From a virus, in IMG/VR virus record IMGVR_UViG_3300006028_000011, positions 18,239 through 82,238 of that record: a stretch of DNA of 64,000 nucleotides; one strand, written 5' to 3'. The notes under the pieces are model-generated. The model did no database searches. It worked only from the letters and a program-made list of their open reading frames with translations, and was not told where the DNA came from. Positions 32,972 through 37,963 of this stretch are shown here, in pieces (the first letter of the stretch is position 1; every line of letters begins with the position of its first letter). The translations under genes and the position numbers were made by a program.

Positions 32972-33550
32972 TCAGACGCAGACCTTCCGGTAGACGCAGT
33001 CGAGGCACTTCGTCGCCGGCGCCCGCCCCGGCATGTCCTCCGTGCCGACCACGGCCTGCATGTCGGCCACGAGGTTCCGCACGATCCGCTTGTCGGCCTC
33101 CCTGATCGCCACCTCGCGGACGACGTCGCCGCCCAGATAGTGCAGGTAGCCGCGGTTAACCAACCGGCCGTGCCGCTCCTCGAGGAGCAGGGCGTAGGCC
33201 GCGAGCTGCACCAGCTGCTCGGGCCACGGGCGCGCGGGCGGCTCGCCCATCTTCACCTCGTACACCGCGAGGTCCCCATCCGCGGCGACCAGGGCGTCGA
33301 CCTTGCCGCGGAGCCGGAGCCGCTCCGACGACAGCTCAGCGGACATCAACTTCGAGCGGGCCCGCACGCTGGCGCCCTCCCGCCATCGGTTCTGCTCCCT
33401 GGCCGCCCAGCGGTCGTGCTGCTCGCGGCCGTGCTCGGTCTTCACCGTCCCGCGCTGCTTCATGCCGAGCACGTACGCGAACCACGTGATCCGGGCGCAG
33501 TAGCGGTGGTTCATCAGGTCTCCGACCGACAGGTAGCCGTGGCGATCCAC
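32972..33550 (-). CDS. cas4: CRISPR-associated exonuclease Cas4
   Basis: YCAR, GKVD, YEVK, QLAAYA, KCLDCVYRKVC (Fe-S cysteines). Confidence 0.93.
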   Translation of the reverse strand: MDRHGYLSVGDLMNHRYCARITWFAYVLGMKQRGTVKTEHGREQHDRWAAREQNRWREGASVRARSKLMSAELSSERLRLRGKVDALVAADGDLAVYEVKMGEPPARPWPEQLVQLAAYALLLEERHGRLVNRGYLHYLGGDVVREVAIREADKRIVRNLVADMQAVVGTEDMPGRAPATKCLDCVYRKVCV

Positions 33551-33852
33551 TACAGCACCTCGAAGCGATCACGCCGATGGTCGGGGAAGTGCGCCTGGCG
33601 GCCGAGGAAGCGGGCGCCCCCGAAGCAGCCGTCGCACATCGGCAGGACGTAGACGCGGTCCGACTCGCGGGCGCGCGGGTCCCTGGCGAACAGGCCCTCG
33701 ATGCGGATCTGGAGCATCTCCCTCCGGTTCCGGGTCAGGTCACCCGCGAACGCCGAGTACTGCACGCGCTCCAGGCCGAAGTCGAGCAGGAACTCCGCGG
33801 TCCGGACGCGCAGGCCGTTGTCGCCGATGTCGTAGATCACGAGCAACCTCAT
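33550..33852 (-). CDS. cas2: CRISPR-associated Cas2
   Basis: MRLLVIYDI, GLERVQYSAFAG. Confidence 0.95.
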   Translation of the reverse strand: MRLLVIYDIGDNGLRVRTAEFLLDFGLERVQYSAFAGDLTRNRREMLQIRIEGLFARDPRARESDRVYVLPMCDGCFGGARFLGRQAHFPDHRRDRFEVL

Positions 33853-33868
33853 CCGCCGACGGGGCCGG

Positions 33869-34957: not shown

Positions 34958-36115
34958 GTGGCATCCACACTCGCCTACCACCGGCCGTCACCTGTGGCAG
35001 CCATGCTCGCGCTCCGACCGCTGCAACTGGCGTGGCCAGGCGAGCCGGGCATGGGTGACTTCGTGGCATCCACGCTCGCGCTCCGTCGGCCGCTGCAACT
35101 GGCACGACGGCGCAAGAGAGGATCGAGAGTTGGTGGCATCCACGCTCGCGCTCCGTCGGCCGCTGCAACAGCGCACCCGCGACTGGGAAGAGAAGTAGGC
35201 CGAGTGGCATCCACGCTCGCGCTCCGTCGGCCGCTGCAACCACTCGTCCCGGGCCGGAACGACCAGTCATTCACCGTGGCATCCACGCTCGCGCTCCGTC
35301 GGCCGCTGCAACCATGCTGTGCCGATCACTCAAGGAGGAGGTGATGCCGTGGCATCCACGCTCGCGCTCCGTCGGCCGCTGCAACACAGTCGCAGGGCGC
35401 CGTAGCTCCCACTGACCATCCCGTGGCATCCACGCTCGCGCTCCGTCGGCCGCTGCAACATATTGGGATCTTGGGAGCAGCCTTATTGCCATCGGTGGCA
35501 TCCACGCTCGCGCTCCGTCGGCCGCTGCAACCGCCTCGCCGGGAGCACGAAGCCACGGCCGATTCTCGTGGCATCCACGCTCGCGCTCCGTCGGCCGCTG
35601 CAACGCATAGAGTTCAGACAGATGCCGCCGCAATCACCGTCGTGGCATCCACGCTCGCGCTCCGTCGGCCGCTGCAACCCGCTTGCAGAAGATCATCGAC
35701 GCCGACCTCAGGTTGTGGCATCCACGCTCGCGCTCCGTCGGCCGCTGCAACTGTGCAGTACCCTCCGCAGCTTACCGCTCAGTCTACCGGTGGCATCCAC
35801 GCTCGCGCTCCGTCGGCCGCTGCAACTGACAAAGCGGCGATGATAGCCGCGATAACCGCAGGTGGCATCCACGCTCGCGCTCCGTCGGCCGCTGCAACCC
35901 GCGCGGTTGGCTGCTCGGACGCGGGGCCTCATCCGTGGCATCCACGCTCGCGCTCCGTCGGCCGCTGCAACCGCCTCGGCGCTGGTGCTCACGGTGATGA
36001 CCTCTCTGTGGCATCCACGCTCGCGCTCCGTCGGCCGCTGCAACCCGGCAGTGGCAGGCGCCATGCGAAGCCATCTTCGTGGCATCCACGCTCGCGCTCC
36101 GTCGGCCGCTGCAAC
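34958..36115 (-). CRISPR. CRISPR array: 15 identical 37-bp repeats, 2 degenerate distal repeats, 15 spacers of 33-38 bp
   Basis: Repeat (minus strand) GTTGCAGCGGCCGACGGAGCGCGAGCGTGGATGCCAC; exact copies start at 35063 through 36079; degenerate copies at 34994-35027 and 34958-34993 place the leader on the effector side. Confidence 0.98.
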
Positions 36116-36280
36116 CGCAATCGCCAACTCGTAAGCGCCCACAGCAGGCGCTCGGCGTAGACTGAATCCGTCATAGAGCCGATGAGCCCGAGTTGCGTCG
36201 ACGTGGTCAACCTCCCCCTCGCGGTGGCAAGTGAGAGGTCGTCCGCGAGTACAGCAGACGTCGGGGCGCAGGTGTGGTAT
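36116..36280 (-). promoter_or_regulatory. CRISPR leader, possibly containing a structured accessory RNA
   Basis: Non-coding; stems at 36134-36152, 36199-36263 and 36218-36249. Confidence 0.55.
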
Positions 36281-37963
36281 TCAGGCCACGGCATGGGGCA
36301 CACCCCTACCGTTAGCGCCTGACGGACCTGCCCGGCCCGGCTCCTCCAGTGGACGCTGGAGGACGTTTCGCGCCGAGTTGACCGTCCTCGGCGCGGTGTA
36401 ACCGCAGGCCGGGCAACGGTGAACGCGGAGCGATATGGGCTTTGGGACGAGCGTGCCGCACCGGGCGCATTCCTGCGTCGTGTGTGGTGCCGGCTTCCTC
36501 GCGACTCGACCACCAGCATCTGCCGCTTTGTAGTCGAGGGCGGCGAAGAACGCGCCCCAAGCTGCGTCGAGTTCCCCTCTGTTCCTCCTCCTCTGTACGT
36601 GTGCCGGAAGGTCCGGCTGTGGATCCGGGTTGTGCTCCGGAGCCACCGTCAACTGCTTGATGTCGAGCGCTTCGACGGAGATCTCCTCGAACTGGCGCAC
36701 CAGGGCCCGCGACACCTTGTGTCGGTGGTCCCCGCGGGCGCTGCGCTCGCGCTCCTTGGCGCGGGCGTACGCCTGCACCGCCTTCTTCCGGCGGTTGCTG
36801 TGGGCGTGGCCGGCCCTGGTCCGCCGGGCGACCCTGCGCTGCGTGCGCGCGACCCGCCTGGCGTGCCGCATGCCAGCATTGCTGCCCTCGATGAGCACGG
36901 CGGAGCCGGCCTCGTCAGGCACCGGCTCGGCGATGTCGTGGGCGGCCTGGAGGCGCCTGCGGATCCTCGCGCACGCCCTGTCGAGCTCTCCGAGTCGATG
37001 GAGGGACCGACGGTAGAGCTTGGTCAGCTCCTTCGGGCATCGGCGCGGCCGGGCTGGATCCAGGCCTCGCGCCCGGCAGTGCGCCAGCACCTCCGAGAGC
37101 TGCGCGGCCTCGCGTTCCAGCTCCTCCAGCCGCCGGCAGTCCGAGGGGTCGGTGGCCATCCGGCGCAGATCCGCGACGAGCGCCGCGGCCGCGCTGGTGT
37201 CAGCCGTGAAGGCCGTGCCCCAGGTGACCACGCCCATGTCCAGCCCGACTGCCGGACGGCCGCTGGCGGCTGGCTCGACGCTCGGCATCTCCATGGCGAT
37301 CGAGACGAACCAGCGCTTCCCGGACCGGCGCACGATGACGCTCTTCGGGATGGCGCCCATGGGGATGCGGCGGTGCTCGAGGATGCGCAGCTCGCCGAGC
37401 CCGGTGAGGCGGAGATCGCCGTTGTGGTACGTGCCAGCGCCGACGGTCTTGCCCCGGCCGAGCGATTCGCCGGTCTCGGGGTCGAAGCGCTCCTTCGACG
37501 GGCTGGTGAGGCCGAACGTCAGCGAGTCGTACCTGTGCTCGGAGCGCCAGCGCGGATACCCGGCCTTCTGACCCTTGGTCGCCCGCTGGAAGAACGCGGC
37601 CATGGACCGCTCGAGGCGCGCCAGGACCTCGTGCTGGACGAGAGCGGGCATGCCCGGCGGCAGGAGCTCGGCGTGCTCGCGGCGGAACTCCGTGAGCAGC
37701 TTGCCCTGGTCGTTCTTGGAGATGTGGGCGCCGCCGCCGCCGCGATAGACCCACCTGCCGGGCGGGTCGCTCTTTTTGCGGGGGGCGGCGTCGCCGTCCC
37801 AGAAGCGGAAGCCTCGGCCGTGCGCGTCATGGCGGCCCCACGCGTTCTTGCGGTGCTCGAGGGCCGCGTTGTAGAGCTGGCTCGCGAAGCGCAGCCAGCT
37901 CGTCAGGGCCTCGGCCTGCTCTGGCGTCGGGTAGGCGCGGTACTTGTACGTCCGAACCGTCAC
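36281..37963 (-). CDS. cas12: Compact type V CRISPR effector (TnpB-derived, Cas12f/Cas14-like), 560 aa
   Basis: RTYKYRAYPT..Q N-terminus, GYPRWR, RuvC-I VGLDMG (D242), RuvC-II SVEAL (E431), Zn ribbon CARC/CPAC, RuvC-III RTVNSARN; adjacent to the array and cas1-2-4. Confidence 0.9.
   Translation of the reverse strand: MTVRTYKYRAYPTPEQAEALTSWLRFASQLYNAALEHRKNAWGRHDAHGRGFRFWDGDAAPRKKSDPPGRWVYRGGGGAHISKNDQGKLLTEFRREHAELLPPGMPALVQHEVLARLERSMAAFFQRATKGQKAGYPRWRSEHRYDSLTFGLTSPSKERFDPETGESLGRGKTVGAGTYHNGDLRLTGLGELRILEHRRIPMGAIPKSVIVRRSGKRWFVSIAMEMPSVEPAASGRPAVGLDMGVVTWGTAFTADTSAAAALVADLRRMATDPSDCRRLEELEREAAQLSEVLAHCRARGLDPARPRRCPKELTKLYRRSLHRLGELDRACARIRRRLQAAHDIAEPVPDEAGSAVLIEGSNAGMRHARRVARTQRRVARRTRAGHAHSNRRKKAVQAYARAKERERSARGDHRHKVSRALVRQFEEISVEALDIKQLTVAPEHNPDPQPDLPAHVQRRRNRGELDAAWGAFFAALDYKAADAGGRVARKPAPHTTQECARCGTLVPKPISLRVHRCPACGYTAPRTVNSARNVLQRPLEEPGRAGPSGANGRGVPHAVA

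Follow-up and report, generated by a model that had tools for sequence, protein, structure and literature searches.

A phage-borne type V-like CRISPR-Cas locus that joins a TnpB-derived effector with an apparently incomplete RuvC triad to a cas1-cas2-cas4 adaptation module

Can a phage carry a self-contained type V-like CRISPR-Cas system, composed of a compact TnpB-derived effector and an adaptation module of its own, and by which kind of interference would such an effector act? This question is raised by a locus in the IMG/VR virus record IMGVR_UViG_3300006028_000011. The window analysed here (the whole stretch of 64,000 nucleotides, to which all positions refer unless stated otherwise) corresponds to bases 18239-82238 of this 82,238-bp record, which has direct terminal repeats and is rated 100% complete. 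A gene for a TnpB-like protein, a leader, a CRISPR array and the genes cas1, cas2 and cas4 were found together on the minus strand and almost certainly constitute a real phage-borne CRISPR-Cas locus. The preliminary description of this DNA had listed a 560-aa TnpB-like protein, a 165-bp stretch, 15 identical repeats and cas1-cas2-cas4, each of which was recovered in the stated co-orientation; its placing of the locus between lysis genes and early genes holds only approximately, the endolysin gene being ~9 kb away from the effector gene. The parts of the locus are as follows:

36281..37963, minus strand: effector, a 560-aa TnpB-derived CRISPR protein (identified by Pfam, NCBIfam, alignments and tree)
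36281..36339, minus strand: two covarying hairpins in the last effector codons, the second closing on the stop codon; candidate body of a trans-activating CRISPR RNA (tracrRNA)
36238..36292, minus strand: candidate anti-repeat, a bulged complement of the locus's own repeat, straddling the stop codon
36116..36280, minus strand: leader, 165 bp, with a conserved hairpin and a conserved junction motif before the first repeat
35063..36115, minus strand: CRISPR array, 15 identical 37-nt repeats (minus strand GTTGCAGCGGCCGACGGAGCGCGAGCGTGGATGCCAC) and 14 unique spacers
34961..35062, minus strand: leader-distal array end towards cas1, with a 15th spacer, a degenerate 16th repeat and a half-repeat remnant
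33869..34864, minus strand: cas1, 331 aa from the ATG at 34864 (TIGR00287, 221.3 bits, cut-off 71.7; Pfam Cas_Cas1, 220.7 bits)
33550..33852, minus strand: cas2, 100 aa (TIGR01573, 43.9 bits, cut-off 24.5; Pfam CRISPR_Cas2, 50.6 bits)
32972..33550, minus strand: cas4, 192 aa (TIGR00372, 101.6 bits, cut-off 65; Pfam Cas_Cas4, 62.6 bits)

The effector open reading frame (ORF; 36281..38113, minus strand) would encode 610 aa if read from its first GTG; the GTG at 37963, which is preceded by a GGAGGG Shine-Dalgarno sequence and overlaps the stop codon of a methyltransferase gene as GTGA, is the start that agrees with the family alignment and yields the 560-aa protein, in which the Pfam domains HTH_OrfB_IS605, OrfB_IS605 and Cas12f1-like_TNB were recognized. 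Exactly 165 bp of non-coding sequence separate the effector stop (36281) from the first repeat (36115). The repeats start at 35063 to 36079 with a spacing of 70-75 nt, leaving spacers of 33-38 nt whose mutual similarity is no better than chance (maximum score 10 versus up to 12 in shuffles). The degenerate 16th repeat (~34994-35030) and the half-repeat remnant (ending near 34961) lie on the cas1 side, and the decayed repeats of the related loci described below lie on the far side of their arrays; since decayed repeats thus sit away from the effector, the effector-proximal 165 bp were assigned as the leader.

That the surrounding genome is that of a tailed phage is documented by matches to PHROGs in the window (tape measure, endolysin, integrase, DNA methyltransferases and a Mom-like protein) and by the terminase large subunit, portal and major head protein encoded outside it. 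The preliminary description, in which a CRISPR-Cas system equipped for its own adaptation was placed on a temperate phage, was borne out in that the locus is complete and the phage genome, which is likewise complete, encodes an integrase. An assembly artefact, i.e. a bacterial CRISPR locus misjoined into a phage contig, had nevertheless to be considered, the record being a metagenome assembly. Contiguity was examined with Logan contigs of the one public run in which the stretch was found, a 2017 rhizosphere metagenome, which is probably the source sample and thus does not represent independent data. A 10,386-nt contig, without differences over 31500-35099, connects phage genes with cas4-cas2-cas1 and the distal array end; a 4,834-nt contig, without differences over 36087-39500, connects the first repeat with the effector, the methyltransferase and further phage genes; both have a similar depth (13-18). 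The array interior was left unbridged, which is the part of the contiguity check that favors misjoining. Against it stand, besides the agreement of an independent assembler on each half, the closure of the record by an exact terminal repeat of 90 bp, the even GC content across the locus junctions (0.69-0.75) and the fact that the relatives in loci L002 and L003 likewise adjoin integrase and DNA methylases. Because the separate assembly joins both halves of the locus to phage genes, a chimera is unlikely, and misjoining of a bacterial locus is regarded as very improbable.

The family relationships of the effector were examined by profile comparisons. Among the NCBIfam models, the broad subfamily model guided_TnpB was the only one to pass its cut-off (171.6 bits, cut-off 100); IS200_TnpB (109.6 bits, cut-off 425), c2c8 (71 bits, cut-off 350) and Cas12f2 (17.3 bits, cut-off 450) remained below theirs. 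A word-based search retrieved only five near relatives; a profile search of 1.84 billion representatives retrieved nine proteins at 352-818 bits, the next matches being ordinary TnpBs of 330-470 aa at no more than 292 bits, and in the ESM Atlas only TnpB clusters were matched. Compared with solved proteins, the family profile matched RdCas12n best (Cas12n, type V-N, formerly V-U4; PDB 9J09, identified via PMC12216341; E 2.9e-33, 118.6 bits), besides ISDra2 TnpB (E about 1e-26), Cas12m proteins (E 9e-16 for Cas12m4a, 5e-10 and 4e-5), LaTranC (E 1e-13) and Cas12f proteins (E 1e-10 to 8e-3). The closeness to Cas14/Cas12f that had been supposed was therefore not upheld, the solved Cas12f proteins ranging far behind RdCas12n and ISDra2 TnpB.

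A metagenome scan for the family yielded four loci (L002, L003, L004 and L005), and no further ones were detected in IMG/VR or in GTDB representative genomes. In three of the four (L002, L003 and L004), a 37-nt-repeat array of the same general form directly follows the effector gene; in L002 (L002:2535-4224), a 470-aa relative is followed by a 4-repeat array within about 25 nt. The L003 array is followed by a phage-type integrase gene, and L002 harbors a helix-turn-helix (HTH) regulator and two DNA methylases; cas1, cas2 and cas4 are absent from the 10 kb seen at L002 or L003. The fourth locus, L005, has no array; its protein, which shows the canonical motif, is an ordinary TnpB and does not belong to the clade. 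A maximum-likelihood tree was computed from 102 sequences, namely the clade members, L002, L005 and the top-scoring TnpB matches as far as P0180, with everything shorter than 330 aa (e.g. fragment P0102) omitted. In this tree, L002 and P0092, which are array-linked and keep the RuvC-III Asp, were sister to nine proteins that lack this residue; the Shimodaira-Hasegawa-like approximate likelihood ratio support was 96 for these nine and 99 for the group that also includes L002 and P0092. The whole effector group was nested among ordinary TnpBs. This nesting fits the separate TnpB-to-Cas12 recruitment envisaged in the preliminary description.

With a single TnpB/RuvC-fold gene linked to an array, a link that is kept in the window, L002, L003 and L004, the locus has the make-up of a type V system. 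It does not have that of a mobile IS200/IS605 element: Y1 TnpA (PF01797) was found nowhere in the whole 82-kb record by a search that was positive in 6 of 14 control genomes (in accordance with the previous observation that tnpA is missing), the effector gene is single-copy in the record, and an array stands in place of a single guide. The 118.6 bits to RdCas12n, versus up to 292 bits to TnpBs, speak against an assignment to Cas12n; for Cas12m, the E-values are weak and the triad here reads D-E-T. As judged from its sequence, the effector lies outside Cas12m and Cas12n and appears to lie outside Cas12f1/f2. It is matched along its entire length, with 357 bits, by the PADLOC model PDLC01691 ('Cas12f; CAS-V-F') in an output without curated cut-off (the Cas12u4 model gives 139 bits); the former model also gives 157-212 bits to the five other clade members compared (P0002, P0004, P0006, P0087 and P0088) and to ordinary TnpBs. 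Since ordinary TnpBs score about 200 bits too, this model has no specificity for the clade; since these five clade members score only 157-212 bits, the high value suggests that the effector or a near copy of it was part of the model's seed. The effector is thus probably catalogued already, as had been thought possible, and a V-F label would probably be assigned to the locus by automated typing programs.

A distinctive feature of the effector concerns its catalytic site. RuvC-I D242, RuvC-II E431 and the CxxC...CxxC zinc ribbon are kept, and T527 occupies the position of the RuvC-III Asp, where it aligns in HMMER with the third catalytic Asp (D361) of the ISDra2-type nuclease; the complete D-E-D triad of cutting type V effectors is therefore lacking. 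In an alignment of 51 sequences (the nine clade proteins and the next 42 hits), the RuvC-III Asp was found in none of the clade proteins (Thr in seven, Gln in one, Ala in one) and the RuvC-I Asp and RuvC-II Glu in all nine, whereas the RuvC-III Asp was present in 40 of the 42 next hits (exceptions: fragment P0102 and P0124). A true absence of this residue from the clade is thus very probable, and a Cas14-like cutting mechanism cannot be assumed. The L002 protein retains the Asp (DRD at the RuvC-III motif) and thereby a full triad; because this basal, array-linked protein still has DRD, the link to the array would, according to the tree, have arisen first and the Asp have been lost second, and L002 may represent the ancestral, cutting form of the family. 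Two acidic residues located just before RuvC-II, E404 and E406, are invariant and family-specific. Among TnpB relatives outside the clade, a regular-expression search flagged P0124, P0143, P0154, P0167, P0176 and P0177 as lacking the RuvC-III Asp (Gln, Ala, Lys, His, Lys and Asn, respectively; P0124 was the only one checked by alignment), which hints at further independent losses.

Since the catalytic triad is incomplete, a binding-type interference is proposed; that the effector binds rather than cuts is considered an even chance. Precedents have been described: Cas12m2, whose triad is non-canonical, acts as a silencer through binding (PMC10442227), and V-C and V-M effectors block transcription (PMC12669027). 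Alternatively, the effector could cut DNA under RNA guidance, as Cas12n and Cas12f do, by tolerating Thr at RuvC-III or by using a relocated acidic residue; the locus would then be a conventional DNA-cutting type V system whose location on a phage is incidental. The invariance of D242, E431 and the zinc ribbon in the clade, the acidic pair E404 and E406, the full triad of basal L002 beside the same kind of array, and the possession of a full adaptation module, as is typical of interference-competent systems, are compatible with a nuclease; so are the TnpB branches described as having rearranged, probably active RuvC sites (PMC10691335). However, the residues replacing the Asp in all nine clade proteins (Thr, Gln and Ala) cannot be carboxylate metal ligands, the Asp is kept in nearly all neighboring TnpBs, and in the Thermus phage Cas12r a single catalytic loss, D238A, is reported to have abolished interference (10.64898/2026.04.20.719267). 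An active nuclease is accordingly viewed as possible but rather unlikely.

A second feature would tie the effector to the array at the RNA level. In alignment A3, comprising the ORF 3' ends and leaders of the window, L002, L003 and L004, two hairpins across the last effector codons comprise 16 pairs, with 95.3% of cells paired versus 23-46% when the partners are slid; four pairs are changed on both sides, and only 1 of 500 shuffles reaches the same score. The hairpins are thus kept through compensatory changes while the encoded amino acids differ. The adjoining candidate anti-repeats form duplexes of -40.5 kcal/mol on average with their cognate repeats versus -30.5 kcal/mol with non-cognate ones, and the cognate assignment ranks first of 24 permutations; shuffled repeats matched the cognate anti-repeat as well in 4 of 200 cases for the window, 0 of 200 for L003, 13 of 200 for L004 and 0 of 200 for L002. 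On the basis of the covarying hairpins and the candidate anti-repeat, a tracrRNA encoded at the effector ORF 3' end is rather more probable than its absence. The strongest candidate anti-repeat is that of L002, located within its own ORF 3' end. For the stretch formerly designated as leader, the length of 165 bp was confirmed, whereas its role is to be qualified, as the same stretch also carries the candidate anti-repeat. An Rfam search gave nothing above chance, and a promoter and terminator scan was uninformative.

The origin of the array and of the adaptation genes has to be considered separately from that of the effector. All three adaptation proteins score above the curated cut-offs of their families, and Cas1 residues E157, H222, D234 and E237, which would correspond to the catalytic residues of E. 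coli Cas1, are invariant among 17 diverse Cas1 sequences; by sequence, the module looks intact. Cas1 has far more relatives than the effector (about two dozen clusters at 64-82% identity), and its sole genome match is locus L006, a contig of a Candidatus Dormiibacterota metagenome-assembled genome. L006 contains cas1-cas2-cas4 in the same order, with identities to the phage proteins of 65%, 69% and 54%, respectively (the Cas4 alignment extending from end to end and comprising the C-terminal Cys cluster), and a 37-nt-repeat array beside type III-like repeat-associated mysterious protein (RAMP) genes, at a GC content similar to that of the phage. No effector homologue is present in the L006 genome, nor was the effector family detected in 301 genomes of its phylum (best 150 bits). 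The RAMP matches on this contig (L006:1-10495, DATGLL010000162.1) to Csx7, Cmr4 and Csx10 are weak and below cut-offs, and its neighboring proteins of 657 aa and 246 aa are without family match.

The kinship extends to the leader. A hairpin at ~36203-36240, ending GGTTGACCAC, and the junction motif before the first repeat are common to the window, L003, L004 and the leader of the type III-linked array of L006 (alignment A4); the leader fold has a z-score of -1.93 (8 of 200 shuffles fold equally well), and no stable fold was found for the repeat alone (z +1.34). That this hairpin is what is left of an omega-RNA or tracrRNA, with a fixed guide behind it, was considered and rejected, because the same hairpin and junction occur in the L006 leader; the 30 nt after the hairpin have no second match in the phage genome. 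The hairpin is therefore read as a part of the array and adaptation type, not as an effector scaffold. The L006 repeat shares its first 10 nt with the phage repeat and differs at its 3' end, where the phage repeat resembles those of the other effector-linked arrays (alignment A4); no other IMG/VR contig contained two repeats of the phage pattern. Cas14a-c loci also combine cas1-cas2-cas4 with 37-nt repeats. As far as the sequences can tell, however, the leader, the 5' part of the repeat and the cas1-cas2-cas4 module of the phage have their homologues at the type III-linked array of L006, and this kinship would explain the repeat type better than the supposed resemblance to the Cas14 repeat does; on this reading, the effector lineage would have adopted an L006-like array type.

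From the same observations it could be argued that array, leader and cas1-cas2-cas4 represent a class 1-type module serving type III or type I complexes of the host, with the effector a separate passenger or in decay: L006, whose genome has no effector homologue, has matching counterparts of the leader hairpin, the junction motif, the initial 10 nt of the repeat and the adaptation genes. This is judged improbable, as the adjacency of effector and array recurs in the window and three relatives, the repeat 3' end departs from L006 towards the other effector-linked repeats, the anti-repeat at the effector 3' end covaries with the repeat, and the effector gene has an unbroken reading frame in which the motifs are conserved. 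P0002 and the Cas1 protein P0242 are each found on a single 26,203-nt Logan contig, which makes it probable that there is a second locus encoding an effector together with Cas1.

Taken as a whole, a self-contained phage-borne type V-like system, with an effector clade recently derived from TnpB and interference mainly by binding, is favored, the chances of the complete scheme being about even. According to this scheme, an ancestral effector would have adopted a type of array that was supplied by a class 1 adaptation module, and the phage would then also have captured the cas1-cas2-cas4 module. Cas1-Cas2-Cas4 would insert new spacers at the effector-proximal array end; the array transcript would pair with the tracrRNA encoded across the effector stop codon and the duplex be processed; the effector-guide complex would bind matching DNA of rival elements or of the host, and interference would, as in Cas12m and Cas12c, rely mainly on tight binding, by which transcription or replication is blocked, with at most reduced or altered cutting. 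The more specific picture of a temperate soil phage with an adaptive, non-cutting CRISPR silencer, in which the TnpB-derived effector would have given up the third RuvC carboxylate and adopted the leader and repeat type of the type III-linked arrays of the host lineage before the phage captured cas1-cas2-cas4, is put forward tentatively.

Several observations weigh against this scheme. No Logan contig of the rhizosphere run spans the array interior, the link to a type III-linked array is drawn from the single locus L006, and the RNA evidence comes from four loci only. The L004 anti-repeat is weak, as its shuffle count indicates; compared with the shuffled surrounding region, the anti-repeats of L003 and L002 stand out and those of the window and L004 do not, the window value (-40.7) being no better than the mean of its null (-39.9). 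The persistence of D242 and E431 in all clade proteins may just as well reflect residual catalysis, and TnpB branches with rearranged, probably active RuvC-III sites have been described (Altae-Tran 2023, PMC10691335). Finally, no protospacer was found in any collection searched, and hence neither a target class nor a protospacer adjacent motif. In detail, the 82-kb genome contains no self-target (best 18 nt with 1 mismatch), 50,697 phage records and 72,556 plasmids gave no match beyond chance (E 0.3), and the exact 24-nt cores of spacers 1 and 9, the two spacers compared by exact match, are absent from IMG/VR. Weak matches in 401 genomes of the phylum of L006 (best E 6e-5 per genome) were dismissed as noise, because the best ones overlap repeat sequence.

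With regard to the host, the portal protein is at most 27% identical to those of cultured phages and has no match in 401 genomes; the link of the phage to Dormiibacterota is given only by the cas module and the GC content. Two further genes were referred to above:

37960..38622, minus strand: S-adenosylmethionine-dependent methyltransferase upstream of the effector (Pfam Methyltransf_11, 57.7 bits)
47196-48623: endolysin (PHROGs)

The methyltransferase is coupled translationally to the effector via the GTGA overlap and has a weak PADLOC 'mad2' match (E 1e-5); no homologue was detected by tblastn in L002-L006, and it is regarded as context only, not being conserved beside the effectors of the relatives. 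Large HTH_31 regulators occur near the effector-array unit both in the phage (41328-42587, 419 aa) and in L002 (L002:5578-6714, 378 aa). A DNA-modification cluster surrounds the integrase gene (3875-9655; methyltransferases of 534 and 427 aa, Mom-like protein of 298 aa). Immediately downstream of the cas genes (31426-31509), ARAGORN predicted a tRNA to which it assigned no type (anticodon 'cg'), and at 53410-53500, on the strand opposite the tape-measure gene, a tRNA-Leu that is probably spurious. Outside the window, a 647-aa ORF beside the major head gene (L022:927-2870, genome bases 927-2870) matches the glycosyltransferase family phrog_2170; it overlaps the major head gene by ~530 nt, and its true start is probably further downstream.

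Among the known systems, Cas12n is the closest solved relative. RdCas12n is described as compact and TnpB-like; its C-terminal tail is disordered, and the region encoding its tracrRNA overlaps the ORF (PMC12216341). The covarying hairpins and candidate anti-repeat of the phage lie at the effector ORF 3' end, where the Cas12n tracrRNA is located; RdCas12n, however, cuts DNA with a full D287/E386/D484 triad in place of D-E-T. Most V-U variants are described as lacking other cas genes (PMC10691335). Cas12m (V-M) is likewise a small near-TnpB effector that has a non-canonical RuvC triad and blocks transcription by binding (PMC10442227, PMC11013384). Its reported triads (HEK/HQK, HDD, DED/NED and DND; PMC10442227) differ from D-E-T, it uses CRISPR RNA (crRNA) alone whereas the phage system has a candidate tracrRNA, and V-M loci are described without adaptation genes (PMC10691335) in contrast to the cas1-cas2-cas4 of the phage locus. 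Cas12f/Cas14 (V-F) resembles the phage effector in being miniature and TnpB-like, and uses a tracrRNA where the phage has a candidate one.

CRISPR systems on phages provide further comparisons. Cas12r of Thermus Lalka phages is reported to depend on RuvC and to operate without tracrRNA on 29-bp repeats; adaptation genes are described as missing, and the authors propose that they are borrowed from the host (10.64898/2026.04.20.719267), as may, by analogy, also hold for loci of the L003 and L004 type. The type I-F system of Vibrio phage ICP1 combines phage-borne interference and adaptation modules against a rival element (according to 10.64898/2026.04.20.719267), but is a class 1, multi-subunit, cutting system of a lytic phage without a TnpB-like effector. 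Myxophage MV-1, a complete high-GC phage, encodes a compact type V effector ('MvCas12m') with an array for which no spacer targets are reported (10.64898/2026.09.14.751636); in the same account, its triad D305/E463/D555 is intact, and eight spacers and no cas1, cas2 or cas4 are described. The numbering of its catalytic residues does not fit the effector investigated here. To our knowledge, phage-borne CRISPR systems and non-cutting type V effectors (V-M, V-K) usually lack adaptation genes.

The novelty of the locus is tempered by the strong match of the public Cas12f-labelled profile and by what has been described before: about 50 independent TnpB-to-type V events with repeated RuvC inactivation (PMC12669027, PMC10691335) and at least 12 captures of adaptation modules (PMC10691335, PMC12669027, PMC10442227). 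In the literature, supplementary tables aside, no account was encountered of a complete phage genome combining a D-E-T effector, a likely tracrRNA, a full adaptation module and a leader and repeat in common with a type III-linked array. The locus would thus unite, on one phage, a near-TnpB effector of incomplete triad, a likely tracrRNA and a full, intact-looking adaptation module, and the clade would place the steps in order: an array-linked effector with full triad (L002), loss of the RuvC-III Asp, acquisition of the helical insertions that characterize the subclade of the window (P0001-P0003) and capture of cas1-cas2-cas4. A true tight binder of about 560 aa may, in addition, be of interest to tool builders. 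If the silencer proposal is correct, the phage would write its own memories, perhaps exchanging spacers with host arrays, and rival phages, plasmids or host genes would be repressed without breaks in the chromosome that the prophage shares with its host. The locus would thereby offer a compact case for studying the path from TnpB to Cas12 and the borrowing of arrays and adaptation modules between CRISPR types.

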